From a virus: DNA of 15,118 nucleotides. The notes below the pieces were generated by a model. It did not search any database, had not been told where the DNA came from, and was given only the letters and a program-made list of their open reading frames with translations. Shown one piece after another: positions 1,529 to 14,766 of this stretch. The position numbers were made by a program, and so were the translations under genes. Each line of letters opens with the position of its first letter. Positions within the stretch are counted from its first letter, which is position 1. The stretch lies in UHGV virus genome UHGV-2163177; one strand, given 5' to 3'.

Positions 1529-3517
1529 TTAGTTGTTAACTTGTACTTGTTCACAAGAAATATATCCCTGTCGTTTGTGTCTTCTCGCATGAGGAAATGC
1601 CAGTCTTATTTTTCCGGATCTTACTAATGGAACGAGCTGTTTTTCTCGTAGGTTCTGTGGTGTTCGGGCCATTAACTTTGCAATAACACTAAGCGGCATA
1701 TAATGGCCTGAGCAAAGCTTAAGTATGATTTCGTCCATGGTTTCGTTGGAAAGTCGTTTCTTTTCTCTGGCTAATGCAGATATGTCTTCTAACCGTTGCC
1801 TTAAGGTTGGTGAAAGGCACTCAAGGTTATCCACATAAGGAAAAGGTAGTTTCTCGGTTATAAAACGACCTAAAGCATCTCGTTCTTTTTCGTTATCCGT
1901 GATCAATTCTTCGTTATCCGTGATCAAATTATCGCTATCCGTGATGATTTGAGCTTCGTTTGCGAATGAGTTGTCTGTTGATAACGGATTTACACCAAAA
2001 ACTTCCTCTGGAGATGGAAGATCCTGCCCCGGTAATGTATATGATTTATTCCTCTTCTCACCATGAGGGACTAAGAATCCGCCGCTTACAAGGCGGGGTA
2101 AGGCTAAAGTTACCTCACGAGAGTGAAGGCTAGTTAGTTGACAAGCCCGTTCATGGTCAATCCACTTTTCTACGGCTGCAGTTATAACAATACTGCGCTC
2201 AAGCTCACTGAGATGGTCTACTTTGTCGCCAAATTTTGTATGGAGAAGATTGGCAATTTCTTCTGATACGAGGTTGCCAATAGATAGCTCCAAAAGTGTT
2301 TGTTCTGGTTCTGTTTTTTCATATAGCCTTGGCATACGCCAGTTAGCCCATTTCCAGCCACTAAATATTTTAGGGATCCCTGAGCCTGATCGTTCACCAG
2401 CACCAATAATTAAAAACATTTGATGCATCAGTCGGTTTCGACAATCGCTTTCATATCCTTTGATTGCTTGTTCTGGTGGCACGCGCATCAAACCTGGATT
2501 ACGGAAGCCAAATAGATCTGGTCGTTTCACAACCATGATGGAGATTCGTCCAGTATAATCGGCATGAACTAAGGTATTTACCAGCGCTTCACGCAATGCT
2601 GTGTGTATCTGAGTATCGTCCTGTCGGATACCTTCTTTAAGCTCAAAAGGGACTTTTAAGTCAGCAATTAGTTTTCGATAGGTTCGTCTGTAAAAGTCAA
2701 ACACGTTACCTGACCAAGTCCCATCGGGACATAGTCTATCTACCCATCTTCTTTCAGTTCTTGCTTCAGGGCGTTCTTGGTAATCCACAAAATAATTTGG
2801 GGCTACATCTTGTATCGCTTCCCATGTTCCAAACATGAGAATGCCAGCTAAGGTCATGCCTTCCAAACCTGTTTGCCGGTCTTTTCTATATCCCCCAATA
2901 CTTCGTAGGAAAGCAAAGTTATCTAGTTCGAGAGCTGGATGTGTCGGGTTTGAAGCAGATAGTAGATTTCTGTAAGCCAACAAGCTTTCTAGGTTAATAT
3001 CGTTCATGTCGAAGTTTTGTACGATACGGTTGTCGCGGCTTTCTTCAACCTGTTCGGCCATCATGCGACGAACTTGTTCTTCTGAACAACGATGATCACC
3101 GTCGTGCATACGAAACCATGTTTCTGACATGGGTTGATTATTCAAATAAACAGGTTTCTGTTCTCGTCGTGCGATTGGTATTTCAATGACAAGAATATCC
3201 TTTCCCTGTAAGGATACTGTTTGGACAGAGTTATTGGTAAGAAGATTAACGTTAACTTTTTTCTTGTTGCTCACGAGGTCGAAAAGCTGCTTTTTAACGG
3301 TATTTATATCTGAAATACCCGCAACGGAAAATTCCCCTTTTTTCTCTCTAATACCTAAAACCACATACCCACCACGGCAGTTTGCCATAGCACTATAGGT
3401 TGGCCAGAAATCATCAGGTAATTTACCTTGTCCGTCTTTCCCTTGAGCTAGCTTGAACTCTAGCTCTGCGGATTCCGAAAGTGCACGCAAGTCGCTAAGG
3501 TCAGATATTAGGAACAC
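1529..3517 (-). CDS. AlbA_2 (Schlafen-like) N-terminal domain plus HATPase_c_4-like ATPase domain protein, 662 aa; often mis-annotated as RecG-like helicase or transcriptional regulator
   Basis: Long ORF with GTG start 4 nt after a GGAGGA SD. N-terminal ESAELEFK motif is typical of AlbA_2; central ALREALVNTLVHADY motif is typical of HATPase_c_4. Domains read by eye. Confidence 0.75.
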   Translation of the reverse strand: MFLISDLSDLRALSESAELEFKLAQGKDGQGKLPDDFWPTYSAMANCRGGYVVLGIREKKGEFSVAGISDINTVKKQLFDLVSNKKKVNVNLLTNNSVQTVSLQGKDILVIEIPIARREQKPVYLNNQPMSETWFRMHDGDHRCSEEQVRRMMAEQVEESRDNRIVQNFDMNDINLESLLAYRNLLSASNPTHPALELDNFAFLRSIGGYRKDRQTGLEGMTLAGILMFGTWEAIQDVAPNYFVDYQERPEARTERRWVDRLCPDGTWSGNVFDFYRRTYRKLIADLKVPFELKEGIRQDDTQIHTALREALVNTLVHADYTGRISIMVVKRPDLFGFRNPGLMRVPPEQAIKGYESDCRNRLMHQMFLIIGAGERSGSGIPKIFSGWKWANWRMPRLYEKTEPEQTLLELSIGNLVSEEIANLLHTKFGDKVDHLSELERSIVITAAVEKWIDHERACQLTSLHSREVTLALPRLVSGGFLVPHGEKRNKSYTLPGQDLPSPEEVFGVNPLSTDNSFANEAQIITDSDNLITDNEELITDNEKERDALGRFITEKLPFPYVDNLECLSPTLRQRLEDISALAREKKRLSNETMDEIILKLCSGHYMPLSVIAKLMARTPQNLREKQLVPLVRSGKIRLAFPHARRHKRQGYISCEQVQVNN
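1890..1952. repeat. Three tandem copies of a 21-bp unit (tcgttatccgtgatcaa...) inside the 1529..3517 CDS, in frame
   Basis: Units at 1890-1910, 1911-1931, 1932-1952; the first 16 nt are identical in units 1 and 2. Encodes heptad-like ITDSDNL/ITDNEEL/ITDNEKE. Confidence 0.85.
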
Positions 3518-4347: not shown

Positions 4348-4875
4348 TCATTGATGGTCTGATTTTTCCCATTCAGCCAGGGCGTTTAGCCCGGCTTCAC
4401 TCCATGATTCCAGTTCATCGGGATAATCACCTGCAACATAGCAGAGTTCGCAACGCAGCATACGAATTGCCAGCCTGGCATTACCTCGCAAATTGTATTT
4501 TTCAAAGTAATGCTGCCCTTCATCATCCTCAAGGCAGATAGCACCATCATCAAGAAAGTGCACTTCCCAGCCTAATTCCCCGGCTGCATACAGCACACGC
4601 TGCTGTATGTCATCGTCCGTTACTGGCGAAGGAATTTTACCGTCTCTGGCCTTAACTGCTTTCCAGAACTCGCCCCACGTCATTTCCAGCGTTCTTTCTG
4701 GCCACATTTCAGAAACGGTGTCTTTCCCTTGTGCCGGTGGGCTGTTCCGCTGCTCTGTCGCCTCCACATCAATTTTTTTGCCAGACATGATCACTTCGCC
4801 TTTCTCGATCCAGTCGTAAACTGTCTGGCGGCTTACGCCTTTGTATTTGGCGTATTCGGCTTTACTCATCAACAT
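4348..4875 (-). CDS. Putative HTH DNA-binding protein, 175 aa (N-terminal KYKGVSRQTVYDWIEKGEV helix-turn-helix)
   Basis: ORF 4348..4884; start placed at the ATG with GAGGTGA SD 5 nt upstream (the track start is a GTG three codons earlier). Confidence 0.65.
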   Translation of the reverse strand: MLMSKAEYAKYKGVSRQTVYDWIEKGEVIMSGKKIDVEATEQRNSPPAQGKDTVSEMWPERTLEMTWGEFWKAVKARDGKIPSPVTDDDIQQRVLYAAGELGWEVHFLDDGAICLEDDEGQHYFEKYNLRGNARLAIRMLRCELCYVAGDYPDELESWSEAGLNALAEWEKSDHQ

Positions 4876-4974
4876 GTAGCTCACCTCATGCGTATACGAT
4901 AAAAAATAATTTCATGCGGAAAGGGAATGCGTTGTGGGTATGGAGGAAAGGGGCAATAACCGCCCCTTACTGAT

Positions 4975-5247
4975 TCAGTTGCGCCAGGATGGCTGGCTAA
5001 GCGTGGTTTTCATTACATCATTGACGACCTGTTTTACGATTTCTGTGTTGGCAGTCGTGCTTTCAACATCAACAAAGCCATAATCGCCAATTTCCACCGT
5101 CAGGGATTCCAGTTTCTTCCCTAGAGCATCAGGCAACTCTCCACTGAACCGGTGCTGAAGATTTTCCACCAGCAACGCCCTGAATGCCTCGCTGTTCTCT
5201 TTTTTCTGCCATAGCTGGCGTTTATCCACTCTGATATTTAATTTCAC
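4975..5247 (-). CDS. Hypothetical protein, 90 aa
   Basis: GTG start overlapping the stop of the upstream gene (GTGA), preceded by AGAGGTGA SD. Confidence 0.5.
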   Translation of the reverse strand: MKLNIRVDKRQLWQKKENSEAFRALLVENLQHRFSGELPDALGKKLESLTVEIGDYGFVDVESTTANTEIVKQVVNDVMKTTLSQPSWRN

Positions 5248-5521: not shown

Positions 5522-5809
5522 TCACTGACTGCAATTTTTCGATCCAGGGTATTTCCTGAATGCCTTACCATTGGGCTGATGTAATCCCATTCCGGCATGT
5601 GCCCGGCTGATGGTTTCGCGCATCTCCCCGAAATTATCCTGCCTTGCTGGTGGGCGTGCTGCCTTGTGGATACATTCCGCGCGACGTTTTGCCGCCTGTT
5701 CCCGTGCCTTGTCATCATTCGCCAGCATAATGACCTCAGCCCACCGCGCCGCCGCTCTCCGGTACAGACCACGCGCTTCCAGTGCTTCCGCTTTGCTGTC
5801 GTGAATCAT
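5522..5809 (-). CDS. PerC-family transcriptional regulator-like protein, 95 aa
   Basis: N-terminal AEALEARGLYRRAAARWAEV resembles the PerC/Pch family signature (from memory); start overlaps the stop of the upstream ProQ/FinO-like gene (ATGA). Confidence 0.55.
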   Translation of the reverse strand: MIHDSKAEALEARGLYRRAAARWAEVIMLANDDKAREQAAKRRAECIHKAARPPARQDNFGEMRETISRAHAGMGLHQPNGKAFRKYPGSKNCSQ

Positions 5810-6336
5810 GCGCTTGTTTTCTCCTTTGCTGCCCGGCGCTGACGTTTGCGCTTCTCATTCAGCGCCACCAGCCGCGTTTCTGCGTCCTGTTGTTCCTGTG
5901 GTGTCACCTCGCCGCACGGCTGGCCTTTCAGGTCGTAACGCGCCCCACCAGCAACCAGGGCGCGGTAATAGCGCGGAGACTGCGCATAAGATGCCAGCGT
6001 CGCACGTAATGCCCCTGGCCCAAATGCCAGCCCCCTGACGGCGAGATCCTGCATCAGGTCGTCGAATATCCCCACCTTAAGCGGCTTCGGTGCTTCCCGG
6101 CTGAATAAGTCAGGCCACAACTCAGTGAGGCGGTTAACGCGCCTGCGGTTTTTGCGCTGGCGTTTGGTCATATGCCGCCACGGTGTCGCCCCTGTGGGCT
6201 TCTGCTGCGCGTTCTGATTACCGGGCATCACTTTATATGCCGATGTGGTTTTATCCTGCTGTTGCGTCTCCTGTACCATTTTTGTGGCATACCGTAATTT
6301 CTGTTGATGGTCAGCTTTTCCATGTGTACTTTTCAT
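5806..6336 (-). CDS. ProQ/FinO-family RNA-binding protein, up to 176 aa (start uncertain)
   Basis: LTELWPDLF...KPLKVGIFDDL...LRATLASYAQSPRYYRAL...RYDLKGQPCGE matches the conserved ProQ/FinO N-terminal domain pattern. None of the candidate ATGs has a strong SD. Confidence 0.75.
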   Translation of the reverse strand: MKSTHGKADHQQKLRYATKMVQETQQQDKTTSAYKVMPGNQNAQQKPTGATPWRHMTKRQRKNRRRVNRLTELWPDLFSREAPKPLKVGIFDDLMQDLAVRGLAFGPGALRATLASYAQSPRYYRALVAGGARYDLKGQPCGEVTPQEQQDAETRLVALNEKRKRQRRAAKEKTSA

Positions 6337-6415
6337 CGATATTATCCGTATTATCGTCGTTCCTTTTGATGGCTTATTTCTATAGAAATTTCTTTATTGC
6401 TTATTGCCCAGATAA

Positions 6416-6742
6416 TTAACTGACTATTAGTGCTTTAATACTCAGGTACGCAGAAAGAATAACACCAATAAAAGAAGGGTACAGCAGAATCCCAAACAAA
6501 AACTTCATGTACTTATGTTTTCCTGTCACTTCGTTAATAACAGATATTATACTCAACATACATAATGCAATACTTATAGTTGCAATAAATGCAATAGTAA
6601 GCAAGATGAAATATCTTACACCTGTTTGAGAAGATAAATTTGCAATTATACCTATCATAACGAGACTCTGTATAATCCCGAAAGACAAAGCACCAGAAGA
6701 CTTTTCCACTATTTCACTAAATTTCTTCACAAAGTAAATCAT
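6416..6742 (-). CDS. Small hydrophobic membrane protein, 108 aa, about 3 predicted TM segments, AT-rich
   Basis: ATG at 6742 with AAGGTGA SD 6 nt upstream; hydrophobic stretches throughout; visibly lower GC than flanking genes. Confidence 0.6.
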   Translation of the reverse strand: MIYFVKKFSEIVEKSSGALSFGIIQSLVMIGIIANLSSQTGVRYFILLTIAFIATISIALCMLSIISVINEVTGKHKYMKFLFGILLYPSFIGVILSAYLSIKALIVS

Positions 6743-6819
6743 ATATATCACCTTTATATAACGCTATGCTAAGGTTTATTTATACGATATCCCCAAATGG
6801 TATTCCATCACCGTACGGA

Positions 6820-7038
6820 TCACTCTGCTGGCCTTTTTTGCCGCCCGGCCGCACCGTTCGCGCACTGATTACGCTGTCTGCGATAACCAGACCAGCCACG
6901 TTTCGCCGTTCCGTCATCTGCCAGGCTGCGCGGAAGGGGAACTGCCATACTCGCCATTGCCATTGGTGTTCCCTTGCTGGTGGTTTTTGAGTGCAGATCA
7001 GCCACCTGCCGCCCGTAAGCGGATATTTGTACCGTCAT
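6820..7038 (-). CDS. Hypothetical protein, 72 aa
   Basis: ATG with GGAGAG SD 9 nt upstream; same orientation as neighbours. Confidence 0.35.
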   Translation of the reverse strand: MTVQISAYGRQVADLHSKTTSKGTPMAMASMAVPLPRSLADDGTAKRGWSGYRRQRNQCANGAAGRQKRPAE

Positions 7039-7235
7039 GCTGTTTGCTCTCCGGTTTTAACGTTGATGATTGTCACCTGTTCAGCTTCGGCAATCTCCCG
7101 TTCTGTCAGCGTGGCAAAGTTTGCCGCTGCCGTTGTCATGAATGCGCTTATCAGTTCGGGATGTACTTTCGCGTATCCTTCCCCGGCGTTGCGGTCGATA
7201 ATTTTTATCGCCCCCCTCAGCCTGTGTTCTGTCAA
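7035..7235 (-). CDS. Hypothetical protein, 66 aa, start uncertain (TTG, no SD)
   Basis: ORF only; weak translation signals. Kept because the alternative plus-strand ORFs look less protein-like. Confidence 0.25.
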   Translation of the reverse strand: MTEHRLRGAIKIIDRNAGEGYAKVHPELISAFMTTAAANFATLTEREIAEAEQVTIINVKTGEQTA

Positions 7236-7324
7236 ATCAAGGGCGTGAGATTGTGTTTTTTGTGTGTTTCGTTGTCACAGCCTTTACCTCACAGCAATAA
7301 AATAAAATTTTTGCATTTTAACCC

Positions 7325-7552
7325 TTCACCTGTTCACCTTTTTCCGTTTCTCCTTTTAATTCATTGTGTTAAGGGGTGAACAGTTTCACAAAAACTATTC
7401 ACCAACTGTTCACCACTGTTCACCCTTAAAGCTCAACAAATAATCAAAAAGGTGAACAGTGAATAGTTTGATGAACAGTTCATGAATAACTGTTCACCCT
7501 ATAACCAACTGATATAGAACACATTTATTACAGGGTGAACAGTGATGAACAG
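7325..7552. repeat. P4-type 'type I' iteron array: about ten copies of TGTTCACC or close variants in both orientations; putative replication origin (ori/crr-like)
   Basis: Perfect octamers at 7331, 7407, 7417, 7491 (direct) and 7375, 7451, 7535 (inverse), plus variants tattcacc, gtgaatag, atgaacag. Immediately downstream of the helicase gene. Confidence 0.8.
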
Positions 7553-7565
7553 TTATTCCATAAGT

Positions 7566-9380
7566 TTAATTTTTGCCATCGTCATTTGTGACCGATGCAC
7601 ATGAGGGCATCCAGTCTTCTGAATCCTCTGTCAGTATCACGTTTGAACGCAAGCCATGCTTCGTTTTCCGTTTCATATACTCCCTGCCGTATTCCGCCAT
7701 TGCCCCTGGCATATCCTTACCGAAGCGTGTCAGTGTTACGGGCTTACCGAATCCGTGTGCCCTCATATACGCCAGATAGGCGTGATAGAGATACCTGCGC
7801 GGGCTGAACGGAATAATTTCAGCATTACCCACTAACAGGCCATCGCACATTACCGACGACATGAGATAGCCGCAGAAGTCCACCAGCGAATCGCCCTCGC
7901 GTTTTATCACCAAGGCTTCTTCTGATTTCTGCTGCTCATATAGCAGGCGTTTAGCTTCGTCCTGGTCAGAAAAGCGTGTAAGCAGGTGGCGAATCACTAC
8001 CGCCAGCTCTCCTTCTATTTTTTCAGCCAGCATAGGGTCACGTTCGTTCTCCGGTACAACTTCCGAAAAATTGAATATTACCCGACGACGTGATATCCCA
8101 CCGCTGCGGTCACTGAATGACATGGCGTTATTGTTCACCGCCAGCACGACCGCCTGAATGCGTGTTGAGTAGGGGGCTTTATGTTTCGGGTCGATTGCCA
8201 CCTTATCACCGCCTGTAATGGCCTTAATCCCTGCACCATCACCAGCGTAACGGGTCATATCCGGCATGATAATCAGCGAAAAGCCAACCACTAACGCACG
8301 TTCCCTGGCATCTTCCAGCGCCTTCATGCTTGCCGATACCGTGTTGGCCTTACCCGCCAGCATAGTGCAAATCTCCGCCATTACGCTTTTACCGCTTCCA
8401 CCCGGCCCCGTTACCTCAAGAAATAACTGCCAGTCGTACCGATTCGCCAGCACCATGAATAACGCCGCCAGTACGCGATCTGCCTTGCGGTCATTCTCAG
8501 CCACCGAACGGCGCAACCACTTCCAGAAATTCGGCGCATGTGTTGCCAGCGTTTCCCCCTCTGCTGGTGGGCTGAAAGGTAATTCACTGGCAATTAACAA
8601 CCAGTCGTTTTTGTTATGCTCCCGAAAATTACCAGTTCTGGTATCAAATACCCCGTTACTGAATCCAATCAGGTTACGGGCTGTATTCCCCATTACGGGC
8701 AAACTTAACTTCATGGTATCGACCGCCGATTTGATGGCGTTCTGCGAATAGCTGATTTCCGCATCAATAAAAATCTGCGCCATAGCCCGCTGTAACTCTT
8801 TATCCTGTACCGGCTCCCATACAACACCGTTGTAGTGGTGAACGGTGTCAGAATCCGCATTGATTGCCAGTTCACCGCCATAATGTGCCAGGAGAACTTC
8901 GCCGCGCTGGCTTGCTCCCATCTGGTTAAGTGCCAGTGGTGTCGCGCTGTCTTCTGTTTTTTTCTTTGCCGGAAACCGGATAATCAGTCCGTCATCAATG
9001 TTTTTACGCTCACGGGCAAGGTATTCACGCCAGTTCTCACACTTCTGGCTGTGCATGCCATCAGGGTAATAATTCGCATTCTGTATACTTGCCGCCGCCA
9101 GCTTCTGACCAATTGCCTTAACCATTACAGGATCTAACTGTCCGGCTCTGAATATGCGCGCGGATGTGCGCCCATCAGGCACTATTTGCAGATTTCCGAT
9201 CTCTTTCAGTTGTTCATCAGCCAGCACAACAGGTGGCTCATTATCTCCAGCCATACGCGCATCGTGTTCCTGCCATTGTTTCGCGTGTGCCCAGGCATCA
9301 CTACCCGCGAAAATAATTACCTCTGTGTCTTTGTGTTTTATTCCGCGTGGCTGTTTTTTTACGTTCGGTGCCAGTTTCAT
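7566..9380 (-). CDS. P4-family primase/helicase-like protein, 604 aa (P4 alpha-like helicase and origin-binding region; the N-terminal primase domain appears to be missing)
   Basis: Walker A TGPGGSGKS; IKAITGGDKVAIDPKHKAPY...RRRVIFNFS matches the P4-family primase C-terminal (SF3 helicase) pattern; GGGGGG SD; start overlaps upstream stop. Confidence 0.85.
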   Translation of the reverse strand: MKLAPNVKKQPRGIKHKDTEVIIFAGSDAWAHAKQWQEHDARMAGDNEPPVVLADEQLKEIGNLQIVPDGRTSARIFRAGQLDPVMVKAIGQKLAAASIQNANYYPDGMHSQKCENWREYLARERKNIDDGLIIRFPAKKKTEDSATPLALNQMGASQRGEVLLAHYGGELAINADSDTVHHYNGVVWEPVQDKELQRAMAQIFIDAEISYSQNAIKSAVDTMKLSLPVMGNTARNLIGFSNGVFDTRTGNFREHNKNDWLLIASELPFSPPAEGETLATHAPNFWKWLRRSVAENDRKADRVLAALFMVLANRYDWQLFLEVTGPGGSGKSVMAEICTMLAGKANTVSASMKALEDARERALVVGFSLIIMPDMTRYAGDGAGIKAITGGDKVAIDPKHKAPYSTRIQAVVLAVNNNAMSFSDRSGGISRRRVIFNFSEVVPENERDPMLAEKIEGELAVVIRHLLTRFSDQDEAKRLLYEQQKSEEALVIKREGDSLVDFCGYLMSSVMCDGLLVGNAEIIPFSPRRYLYHAYLAYMRAHGFGKPVTLTRFGKDMPGAMAEYGREYMKRKTKHGLRSNVILTEDSEDWMPSCASVTNDDGKN

Positions 9381-12342: not shown

Positions 12343-12561
12343 TCAGGCTGATGTGTTTCGGCGTTCTTCCAGCCAGCGATTAATCTCTACCGCATCGAAT
12401 GCAGTGCTTTTCTCACCCAGTTTGATGGGCTTAGGCATCTTCCCGCTACGTACCCAACGATCGAGCGTTGATAAGCTGGTACCCAGCAATTCAGCCAGGC
12501 GATAGCGGCGGATATAGCCAGTTGCAGGGATTGCGGTTTGAAGTATTGGTTGGTTTTTCAT
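12343..12561 (-). CDS. AlpA-family transcriptional regulator/excisionase-like protein, 72 aa (start may be 12570)
   Basis: YIRRYRLAELLGTSLSTLDRWVRSGKMPKPIKLGEKSTAFDAVEINRWL is the typical AlpA/Vis HTH pattern; the N-terminal extension in the ORF track is unlikely. Confidence 0.7.
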   Translation of the reverse strand: MKNQPILQTAIPATGYIRRYRLAELLGTSLSTLDRWVRSGKMPKPIKLGEKSTAFDAVEINRWLEERRNTSA

Positions 12562-12673
12562 ATGCCCCATTACCTTTGTTGTTGGTTTGTGATTTGTAAT
12601 AGGGGCATTAAATAACAAATGAAATGATGTGTGTGTGAGTTTTAGAAAAAACACTGTGACTTTTCTTATTTCA

Positions 12674-13456
12674 CTATCTAAAACGCTCTCGCCAGCTTTT
12701 CCAAGTGTTCTTATCTGGTTGTGGGATTACAATGCCTTTTTGAGCACCTATTTGTGCAATTTTTTTATTTAACTTGTTAGGCGGCAAAGATATTATCTCA
12801 TTGTCTGTTAACCCGGCAATTCTTAATAATCCATATATCATTTTAAATTGATGTATTGTTAATCTTGGTAACTTGTGATTTTCTTTTTTTATAGTGTTGT
12901 TTATGGAGTAAATTGGAAATCCATTTGTTATTGATTTATAAAGGTTGTCAATGTGCTCTCTGGTTATTAATAATGAATCAGGTGTAATCTTAATGTTGCC
13001 GCTTGTTTTTGCATGGCATGAAAAAATAAATGTGGGATTCGCAGTGCGACGTGAAAGCGGTATGGATGTATTCATAGAGATAGTTTTGTTTCTTACTATA
13101 GTCTCTTGAATATCAAAAACTCCAGAAACCTTTGCCTCAAAAATAACACCATTTTCTTTTATTTCATCACTATATTCATGAATAATTATGCCAAGAGAGG
13201 AAATTTCTTTTTTGATGAGAAAAGAAATAAAATCAATATAGTCTTCATCCTTTGGCCATGTAAAATCACGATAACCAAAATACCCCTCACAGTAAGCATT
13301 TTTTATTTTTGTGGCAAAATTAATTCTGTTAATATCCTGCCAATGCCATAAATCATCTATTTCACATTCTAAAATTTGAGCTGCTCTATCTAAAGAGCAG
13401 AATTCTAATGGAGGTAATTGTTTTTTTTGCCATATTGTTTCATTAATATTTGTCAT
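12674..13456 (-). CDS. Hypothetical protein, 260 aa, strongly AT-rich orphan between int and the alpA-like gene
   Basis: Long uninterrupted ORF with A/T-biased codons (Ile/Asn/Lys-rich); no family recognised by eye; weak SD. Confidence 0.6.
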   Translation of the reverse strand: MTNINETIWQKKQLPPLEFCSLDRAAQILECEIDDLWHWQDINRINFATKIKNAYCEGYFGYRDFTWPKDEDYIDFISFLIKKEISSLGIIIHEYSDEIKENGVIFEAKVSGVFDIQETIVRNKTISMNTSIPLSRRTANPTFIFSCHAKTSGNIKITPDSLLITREHIDNLYKSITNGFPIYSINNTIKKENHKLPRLTIHQFKMIYGLLRIAGLTDNEIISLPPNKLNKKIAQIGAQKGIVIPQPDKNTWKSWRERFR

Positions 13457-13512: not shown

Positions 13513-14766
13513 TTATTTATTAGATTGCGTGATGTCAGAACATATCATGTTTTCTAAATTCACCAGCAAATCAGTCCATTGTGCTAGTGCCGCTTTGCGC
13601 TCATCAAAATATTGATGGCGGTTATAAATGCCCTCTACGCCTTTTATGCGGTGGTTAAGGCATCGTTCAGCAACGATCGGGTCAACTCCCAATGCTGCTA
13701 AATGTGTTCGTGCTGTTCGCCGGAAGTCGTGAATTGTAAAGTTGGGGACGTTCGGCATTTCTGCTCTGACTTTTGCCAATGCAACAGGAAGGGTGCTTTC
13801 CTGGATGTGAGGGATCATTCTGTGCTGCATTTTTCTGGCAGGTAATACCCATGCGCTATTGCATGAAAATGTATGCAATTCTCGCAACCATTCTATAGCC
13901 GCTGGTGGCAATGGTATGTCGATAGCATCACCATTTTTAGTTCGTTGTTCTGGTAGATGCCAAATCGCGCCATCTAAGTCGAATTCATCCCACTTGGCGG
14001 CGCATAATTCCATTTTTCTGACACACAACGCCAGGAGCAACTTAAAGGTTAATTCGTTCTGGCGGCTGAATCCTTTGGCTTTACGCATTGCCTGAAAAAA
14101 TTGGATTAATTCGTCCCGGTTCAGCCAACGATCACGAGATAATTCTTTCCCACCAGCATCTGAAACTTCGAAAGCTGAGCAGGGGTTAACTTCCAAAGCA
14201 AGGCGTTTAATACCGTAGTCAAATATGCGACGTGTCCAGCGAAGAACGTCAGTAGCAATTGTTGGAGCGCCTCTATCAACAATACTTTTAAGCATAGCAT
14301 CAATATGGCGTGGTTTTACATCTTCAACCTTCATGTGGCCTATGGCTGGATTTATGTCTTTATCAATGCGCCTACGGAGAATATCTGGGTGTTTCCACCG
14401 GGGAAGTATTTGCCGTTCAAAGTATTCGGCGGCAAGTTCAGAAACGTGCAGCGCGTTTTTTTCGGCTTCTATTTTTGCCAGTGCTTCGGCTTTACGCTGC
14501 TGTTTTTCTGCGGCTACGTCATATCCCAAAGCAACTCGTGCGGAAAGTTCTTTTGCCCGTTCCCTCGCTTTTGATAACGATAATTCAGAATATGAACCAA
14601 TAAGCATGGCACGAGATTTTCCTGCTAGTTTATATCGAAACCGCCAGGTAGGGGATCTATCCACCTCTCTATACCGGAGATATAGCCCACCACCATCAGC
14701 ACGACCTTCGAAATGTTCTCCGGCTTTTATCCATGCGCGGATCTGCATATCTGTGAGTTTTGGCAT
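13513..14766 (-). CDS. int: Tyrosine integrase, P4-type (IntA/IntS-like), 417 aa
   Basis: N-terminal arm-binding-type domain (GGGLYLRYREV...WRFRYK); C-terminal catalytic region with HDFRRTARTHL and conserved Tyr region; located just inside attR. Confidence 0.9.
   Translation of the reverse strand: MPKLTDMQIRAWIKAGEHFEGRADGGGLYLRYREVDRSPTWRFRYKLAGKSRAMLIGSYSELSLSKARERAKELSARVALGYDVAAEKQQRKAEALAKIEAEKNALHVSELAAEYFERQILPRWKHPDILRRRIDKDINPAIGHMKVEDVKPRHIDAMLKSIVDRGAPTIATDVLRWTRRIFDYGIKRLALEVNPCSAFEVSDAGGKELSRDRWLNRDELIQFFQAMRKAKGFSRQNELTFKLLLALCVRKMELCAAKWDEFDLDGAIWHLPEQRTKNGDAIDIPLPPAAIEWLRELHTFSCNSAWVLPARKMQHRMIPHIQESTLPVALAKVRAEMPNVPNFTIHDFRRTARTHLAALGVDPIVAERCLNHRIKGVEGIYNRHQYFDERKAALAQWTDLLVNLENMICSDITQSNK

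Follow-up and report, generated by a model that had tools for sequence, protein, structure and literature searches.

A predicted membrane protein gene with exchangeable alleles in a post-origin slot of PICI-type phage satellites of Enterobacterales

Genomic context of the locus

The window analysed here, i.e., the whole 15,118-nt stretch of UHGV virus genome UHGV-2163177, was 100% identical to the chromosome of Escherichia coli ABU 83972 over the stretches compared. It carried an island located between yicC and dinD, with all island genes on the minus strand. From the integrase at one end of the island (13513–14766), gene order comprised an AT-rich 260-aa gene, an HTH regulator (12343–12654), an AntA/B antirepressor, an Icd-like gene, a DUF4222 gene, and a D5-type primase (7566–9380). 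The primase was followed by a 330-nt gap, a 66-aa gene (7035–7235), an SSB remnant (6780–7038), a 108-aa open reading frame (ORF) hereafter referred to as X (6416–6742), a ProQ/FinO-family gene (5806–6336; Pfam PF04352, 1e-24), and a PerC-family gene (5522–5809; Pfam PF06069, 5e-32). Small genes, a gene for a TerS-like HTH protein (4348–4884), and one for a Schlafen/AlbA_2 protein completed the order.

The gap separating the primase from the 66-aa gene contained nine or more copies of the iterons GGTGAACAG/CTGTTCACC, in both orientations, and this region (7320–7560) was assigned as the replication origin based on two repeat families (D1 and D2) and inverted repeats. X was located downstream of it in the same-strand gene string. 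In the origin organisation described for PICIs (PMC6092414), the 3' end of the replication gene is directly followed by an AT-rich stretch with iterons on both sides, and the iterons of the window were likewise situated directly 3' of the primase. PICIs and cf-PICIs are characterised by a terminal integrase, an AlpA-type regulator, a primase or replicase, a size of about 10–15 kb, and the lack of tail and lysis genes; the island matched this description, with its integrase, HTH regulator, D5-type primase, and TerS-like HTH protein and no tail or lysis genes. Since both the gene content and the post-primase iterons correspond to PICI organisation, the element of E. coli ABU 83972 was classified, on sequence grounds, as a PICI-type phage satellite. 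The iteron core TGAACAG was common to the window and to cf-PICIs from Hafnia-like hosts (L008, L022, L024, and L013; L numbers denote the loci compared).

The SSB remnant, recognised by a PHROG 44 match and by alignment to the intact 140-aa SSB of L004, showed three internal deletions and a broken frame relative to the latter and was called a pseudogene by PGAP. X, directly downstream of it, was intact in all carriers seen. The ProQ ORF was open in the window (176 aa), yet it was flagged as "frameshifted" by PGAP in ABU 83972, IMT5155, and A41; together with the SSB pseudogene, this flag suggests some decay of the island. The ProQ/FinO and PerC pair recurs in many E. coli satellites. No known RNA family was detected with Rfam anywhere in the window, which makes it less likely that ProQ has a partner sRNA belonging to one of the described families.

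Further features of the island were a perfect 14-nt palindrome, ATTTCTATAGAAAT (6376–6389), lying past the X stop codon and ahead of the ProQ start, which was not conserved in L004 and may have arisen by chance in AT-rich DNA, and the AT-rich accessory ORF between the integrase and the HTH regulator (12674–13456, minus strand; 260 aa, GC 0.31, GC3 0.245). The latter had no Pfam or PHROG match, and the same slot holds a DUF6387 protein in cf-PICIs L008, L022, and L024. A gene at 1529–3517 (minus strand), named "RNA-binding domain-containing protein" in RefSeq, has a position and domains that suggest defence-type cargo.

Coding status and composition of X

The ORF list placed X at 6416–6742 on the minus strand, from an ATG start at 6742 to a TAA stop. 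An earlier note on this DNA had given the 108-aa ORF with exactly these coordinates and left the strand unstated. The strong Shine-Dalgarno sequence claimed in that note was read from the sequence as AAGGTG (6749–6754, minus strand), 6 nt upstream of the ATG. It includes a GTG (6749–6751) that offers an alternative in-frame start at 6751, giving a protein of 111 aa, three residues more than from the ATG; this extension was not kept in L004. The intergenic gaps were short, as had also been noted, with 37 nt upstream and 79 nt downstream of X.

The GC content of X (0.315) was far below that of ProQ (0.571), the SSB remnant (0.56), and the whole window (0.456), and a sliding GC profile had its minimum (0.31) at X between shoulders of 0.53–0.62. 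The local dip reported in the earlier note was thus reproduced when the GC and codon profile was run. Under the codon usage of the island itself, a GC content of 0.39 would be expected for X, and the drop from 0.39 to the observed 0.315 is due to AT-biased codon choice; GC3 of X was 0.29, vs. 0.39–0.61 in ten other island genes. Overall, roughly 60% of the dip was attributable to an amino acid composition rich in Ile, Leu, Phe, and Lys, and the rest to AT-biased codons.

Comparison of X with its L004 homolog yielded a dN/dS of 0.18–0.27 (about 0.2), with 19, 5, and 37 differences at codon positions 1, 2, and 3, respectively. When the AT-rich stretch was shuffled 5,000 times, 0.34% of the shuffled sequences contained 115 or more consecutive codons without a stop (p of about 0.003). 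Because substitutions are constrained and biased to third positions, and because so long an open run rarely arises by chance, X is a genuine protein-coding gene under purifying selection. The frame was kept in relatives, and a lack of such conservation was what the earlier note had named as refuting its reading; frame, length, and motifs persisted among homologs from six genera at identities as low as 27%. A chance open frame in AT-rich non-coding DNA, either origin-associated or regulatory, would fit the atypical composition and the lack of a PGAP call in the three RefSeq genomes checked. This explanation was considered vanishingly improbable and was rejected given the comparative data, the shuffle test, and the location of the real origin elsewhere, at 7320–7560, with no Rfam match.

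X was left unannotated by PGAP/RefSeq in the genomes of ABU 83972, IMT5155, and A41, and the exact protein was found on at least 1000 public contigs, each time named "hypothetical protein". X has thus been largely overlooked by annotation pipelines.

Predicted structure and membrane topology

Hydropathy analysis (Kyte-Doolittle, 19-residue means >1.6) delimited three hydrophobic segments, at approximately residues 15–37, 40–74, and 78–103, in agreement with the roughly three segments noted earlier. The family alignment served as input for an AlphaFold2 model (mean pLDDT 75), which contained helices at residues 2–14, 16–36, 42–73, and 77–107. The first of these (6701–6739, minus strand) is an amphipathic N-terminal helix predicted to be cytoplasmic, and the remaining three coincide with the hydrophobic segments. 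Transmembrane (TM) helix 1 (residues 16–36; 6635–6697, minus strand) carries the invariant residues S16, G17, Q25, and M29. TM helix 2 (residues 42–73; 6524–6619, minus strand) carries the nearly invariant G57 and F58 and the invariant I69, and is preceded by a short, predicted periplasmic loop (residues 37–41) that is the most variable. TM helix 3 (residues 77–107; 6422–6514, minus strand) contains a YP..IG..LSA motif and the nearly invariant G93, and the C-terminus that follows is uncharged and predicted to be periplasmic. Conservation in the alignment was lowest from the end of TM1 through the periplasmic loop into the start of TM2.

Among 18 family members, the mean number of Lys and Arg residues was 3.3 at the N-terminus, 0.2 in loop 1, 2.2 in loop 2, and 0 at the C-terminus. 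According to the positive-inside rule, this distribution indicates a three-TM topology with the N-terminus in and the C-terminus out. X is accordingly predicted to be almost wholly buried in the inner membrane. As the predicted protein is devoid of a soluble domain, it would have to act within the membrane.

The X family in sequence and structure databases

Among 5.8 billion proteins, direct matches to X were restricted to two 90% clusters, one of which (P0002; 76% identical) occurs in an intact SSB-X-ProQ-PerC synteny on contigs L004 and L038. HMMER, run exhaustively against 1.84 billion representatives, gave 10 relatives with 29–47% identity and lengths of 94–136 aa, and a profile search of the 5.8 billion proteins gave 32 clusters, all from Enterobacterales. 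The named members belong to Escherichia, Enterobacter, Klebsiella, and Hafnia, every one annotated as "hypothetical", and a genome scan revealed further homologs in Kluyvera and Pectobacterium. A search against plasmids gave a single match, in Klebsiella, and tblastn of X against 50,697 phage records gave none.

Scans of X and 11 relatives against Pfam, PHROG, NCBIfam, and PADLOC returned nothing above noise. There was no Pfam match at E ≤ 10 among these 12 members, no Sie family was matched in PHROG, and a holin HMM gave one noise-level match (1/12 members, E = 0.1). With PADLOC, X itself had no match, and its relatives matched only PycTM and 2TM at noise level (E of about 0.013). Foldseek comparison of the AlphaFold2 model with PDB and BFVD gave only generic helical bundles, none at E ≤ 0.001, and a profile search of PDB sequences with the X family gave only noise. 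In the databases searched, X thus showed no sequence or structure similarity to known exclusion, immunity, holin, abortive-infection, toxin, or defence proteins. By these searches, the X family is small, unnamed, and specific to Enterobacterales. X falls in no named family and resembles small membrane accessory proteins of mobile elements in general.

Distribution and age of the X slot

In L008/9/10, L013, L014, L022, L024, L029, and L030, no other gene intervened between X and the primase or helicase preceding it, and in the window, L004, and L038, X followed the SSB. In the window, the slot takes the form of the origin, the 66-aa gene, the SSB, and then X. Gene order at no fewer than nine loci thus defines a fixed slot in satellites, immediately behind the replication protein and the iteron origin, which X occupies as the leading gene. 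The satellites concerned were HK97-type cf-PICIs at fis/dusB (L008/9/10, L022 from Hafnia, and L024), lambda-type cf-PICIs (L013 and, from Kluyvera, L029), Pectobacterium elements (L030 and L031), and a satellite with an AAA_25 helicase inside a prophage capsid gene (L014). In L014 (2247–14165, GCA_019772035.1), the Phage_cap_E major capsid gene of a lambda-like prophage was split into pieces of 91 and 254 aa, matching the helper-embedded PICI configuration that has been described (PMC10111431). The L014 satellite also had HEPN/GmrSD genes.

A separate subgroup of X homologs of about 113 aa was chromosomal in Klebsiella-like genomes, where it was located next to immunity-type genes or in other variable spots. 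In L011 (4435–6761) and L012 (313–992), the 113-aa homolog followed Imm53, which was intact in L012 and a frameshifted remnant in L011, and was adjoined by an LRR protein and a 131-aa protein with a TolA C-terminal domain. This neighbourhood looks like a poly-immunity locus. The plasmid homolog, from Klebsiella variicola, was located near HicAB and a bacteriocin immunity gene.

Within E. coli, X carriers accounted for only 11 of 5,426 complete genomes, and parts of the surrounding module were present in 1,694. In the related E. coli satellites L017 and L018, which have no X, the SSB abuts ProQ with a gap of about 35 nt, and no X was present beside the closest relative of the window's primase (L002, 88% identical). 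This patchy occurrence marks X as an optional, accessory gene of satellites. Its description as cargo in the earlier note was well founded, considering the direct SSB-ProQ junction, the few carrier genomes, and the discordance with the primase. The same note had regarded the gene as recently acquired, and this part of its reading was not supported. X and its homolog in L004/L038 shared 80–81% DNA identity (dS of about 0.6), comparable to the flanking ProQ (79%, dS 0.62) and PerC (79%, dS 0.94). As X has diverged as much as ProQ and PerC, the SSB-X-ProQ arrangement predates the split of those lineages, and recent acquisition was rejected. Satellite-borne homologs had a GC content of 0.31–0.42, low relative to their flanks, and low GC thus appears as a standing trait of the satellite-borne members, not as the signature of a fresh import.

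Allele exchange at the X slot

Amino acid identity of X was discordant with that of the primase in the pairwise comparisons. Window and L038 shared 44% in the primase and 72% in X, window and L008 68 and 30%, and L008 and L024 98 and 45%, respectively. The last pair showed the pattern most sharply. These two cf-PICIs were 93–100% identical over more than 2.5 kb on either side of X vs. 57–61% over the X ORF, with identity fading about 15 nt before the X start and returning at the X stop codon. Synonymous divergence (dS) of X reached 1.07, against 0.17 in the primase and 0.11 in the capsid gene, and dN/dS was 0.24–0.5 for X vs. 0.02–0.10 for its neighbours. A dS of 1.07 against 0.11–0.17 implies that old alleles were exchanged, rather than that a single allele evolved fast. 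The alignments thus point to an exchange of divergent X alleles, by recombination, at one fixed position in elements that otherwise differ little.

L008 and L024 also differ sharply (43–51% nucleotide identity) in another region, about 2.6–3.0 kb upstream of X, at 5000–5400 in L008 and 6000–6400 in L024. This region covers genes downstream of alpA (ORF6N/414 aa vs. pRha/393 aa) and corresponds to the variable cf-PICI gene noted in a preprint (10.1101/2025.02.11.637232).

Transcription signals

In the cf-PICIs, the 300-nt gap before X was filled with TGTTCAT/ATGAACA iterons. About 40 nt upstream of X, the last of these iterons was overlapped by a promoter-like site (TGAACA-18-TATAAT) that was invariant. 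A terminator-like hairpin followed X in L008 and L024. Promoter-like site and hairpin together are suggestive of an independent X transcription unit that might be active while the island is quiescent. Simple scans of the window gave no dedicated promoter or terminator around X, and there the gene looks co-transcribed with the induced island operon. Such an arrangement would fit a function in the lytic cycle of the satellite better than protection in the quiescent state.

Proposed function and alternative explanations

We tentatively favour a role of X in exclusion or immunity, with a specificity that varies from allele to allele. The context and evolutionary pattern of the gene suggest a conflict or protective role. 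Gene-exact allele replacement is typical of conflict loci, the transcription unit in cf-PICIs is apparently autonomous, chromosomal homologs have an immunity-gene neighbourhood, and in experiments the PICI EcCIMP1 contributed to superinfection immunity through one of its genes (PMC11773190). The variability centred on the periplasmic loop and the phage-interference genes that typically follow PICI origins (PMC6092414) are likewise suggestive of such a role. We infer a mechanism in which X would bind another membrane component inside the inner membrane and would thereby block something arriving from outside. This would most likely be the delivery of a genome, be it by a superinfecting phage or by a particle of a competing satellite; alternatively, the target could be a membrane-damaging toxin. 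Besides the lack of similarity to known exclusion or immunity proteins and the apparent co-transcription in the window, further considerations speak against exclusion: blocking the helper phage would hurt the satellite's own spread, raised dN/dS and variable loops are also expected of any weakly constrained small membrane protein, and the association of X homologs with immunity loci comes from essentially one chromosomal context.

Small inner-membrane superinfection-exclusion proteins such as HK97 gp15, T4 Imm, and P22 SieA, for which PMC11364771 lists references, are thought to act against incoming DNA. X resembles these phage proteins in being short, membrane-embedded, optional in the manner of a "moron", atypical in composition, and situated at module junctions; it differs from them in lacking a Sie PHROG match, in its absence from the 50,697 phage records, and in being satellite-borne. 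Immunity proteins against E1-type pore-forming colicins, such as ColE1 Imm, span the inner membrane with three TM helices. ColE1 Imm (113 aa) shares with X a length of about 110 aa, three TM helices, and an AT-rich small gene on mobile DNA, and its specificity resides within the membrane helices. A ColE1-type immunity protein was nevertheless rejected as an identity for X: alignment of the family profile with verified ColE1 Imm (hhalign) gave a probability of 0.3%, and no Pfam immunity family was matched. No colicin gene was present in the window or at any related X locus. Class I holins of the lambda S type, with a topology of N-terminus out and C-terminus in, have a charged cytoplasmic C-terminal tail. 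They are similar to X in size (about 100 aa), in their three TM helices, and in their association with phages. X was rejected as a class I holin since its predicted topology (N-in/C-out) is the opposite and no charged residues follow TM3 in the 18 members. A conserved dual-start motif was also lacking from X, and neither an endolysin nor a spanin gene was close by, its neighbours being SSB, ProQ, PerC, and a primase or capsid gene, with no lysis cassette.

The main rival to exclusion or immunity, rather unlikely in our assessment, is that X interferes with the helper phage during the induced cycle by meeting its holin or antiholin in the membrane and shifting the timing of lysis. A direct precedent is LidI of the PLE satellites of Vibrio cholerae: these proteins, of either 66 or 121 aa, consist of TM segments only, had escaped annotation, have no homologs, are expressed after infection, and disrupt lysis inhibition (PMC7182436). 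X is likened to LidI by architecture and satellite context, not by sequence: both are satellite-encoded, small, composed of TM segments only, missed by annotation, without known homologs or domains, and represented by divergent alleles across related satellites. Collapse of lysis inhibition has been demonstrated for LidI, which belongs to Vibrio PLEs, not to Enterobacterales PICIs. In support of such a role, X in the window is part of a same-strand gene string without its own promoter or terminator, PICI genes following the origin are typically phage-interference genes (PMC6092414), and the allelic diversity of X would match the great diversity of holins. Unlike LidI, however, X also occurs outside satellites, on Klebsiella-type chromosomes and a plasmid, where no helper lysis cassette is involved. 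X of cf-PICIs, moreover, appears to own a promoter and a terminator, and for the cf-PICI EcCIEDL933, the reported effects on phage fitness were negligible (PMC10085698).

A membrane-damaging toxin or abortive-infection effector, i.e., a pore-former or depolariser that kills the infected cell, would also be a small hydrophobic protein on a mobile element, and low GC could favour its silencing until needed. Weak PADLOC matches to PycTM in 3/12 family members (E = 0.013) point in the same direction but were treated as noise. We consider this role improbable, as no antitoxin, sensor, or partner gene was conserved beside X across contexts, X was intact on the 1000 or more contigs carrying it, and the cf-PICI promoter is probably constitutive-looking. 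With 108 aa and three TM helices, X is also larger than typical type I toxins, and its uncharged C-terminus and predicted topology are opposite to those of class I holins. A role in the satellite's own replication, for instance as a membrane anchor of the replicating element, is suggested by the invariable position of X in satellites after the replication protein and origin, whether with a D5-type primase or the AAA_25 helicase of L014, and by the promoter-like site overlapping the last iteron. This role is very improbable, given that most related satellites with almost the same primase lack X, and that X is discordant with the primase phylogeny and has homologs away from any replicon module; the sharp allele replacement at high dS would likewise be unexpected of a housekeeping replication accessory.

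An extension of the exclusion or immunity reading, which we regard as unlikely but worth stating, is that the X family constitutes a satellite-specific, allele-diverse "membrane specificity cassette" located by the origin, with a promoter coupled to the replication state of the island. Each allele would exclude different incoming phage or satellite particles or membrane-acting toxins, and recombination at the conserved flanks would let satellites re-assort X specificity. With the promoter lying over the last iteron, X could be switched on in the quiescent island and off when Rep is bound.

Implications for satellite biology

Phage satellites now count among the major carriers of anti-phage functions, with attention focused mainly on the accessory regions at the island ends. 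The slot directly after the origin would constitute a third, sharply bounded variable slot of satellites. The new elements here are the small, unnamed X family, its fixed post-origin position in satellites, and the exchange of its alleles between them; gene-exact replacement between near-identical cf-PICIs is the signature usually left by conflict genes. As a small single gene that is easily cloned, X makes the hypothesis cheap to test. If X does act in exclusion or immunity, or modulates lysis in the manner of LidI, it would add a membrane-level layer to the biology of PICIs and cf-PICIs and could help to explain PICI-mediated superinfection immunity such as that of EcCIMP1.
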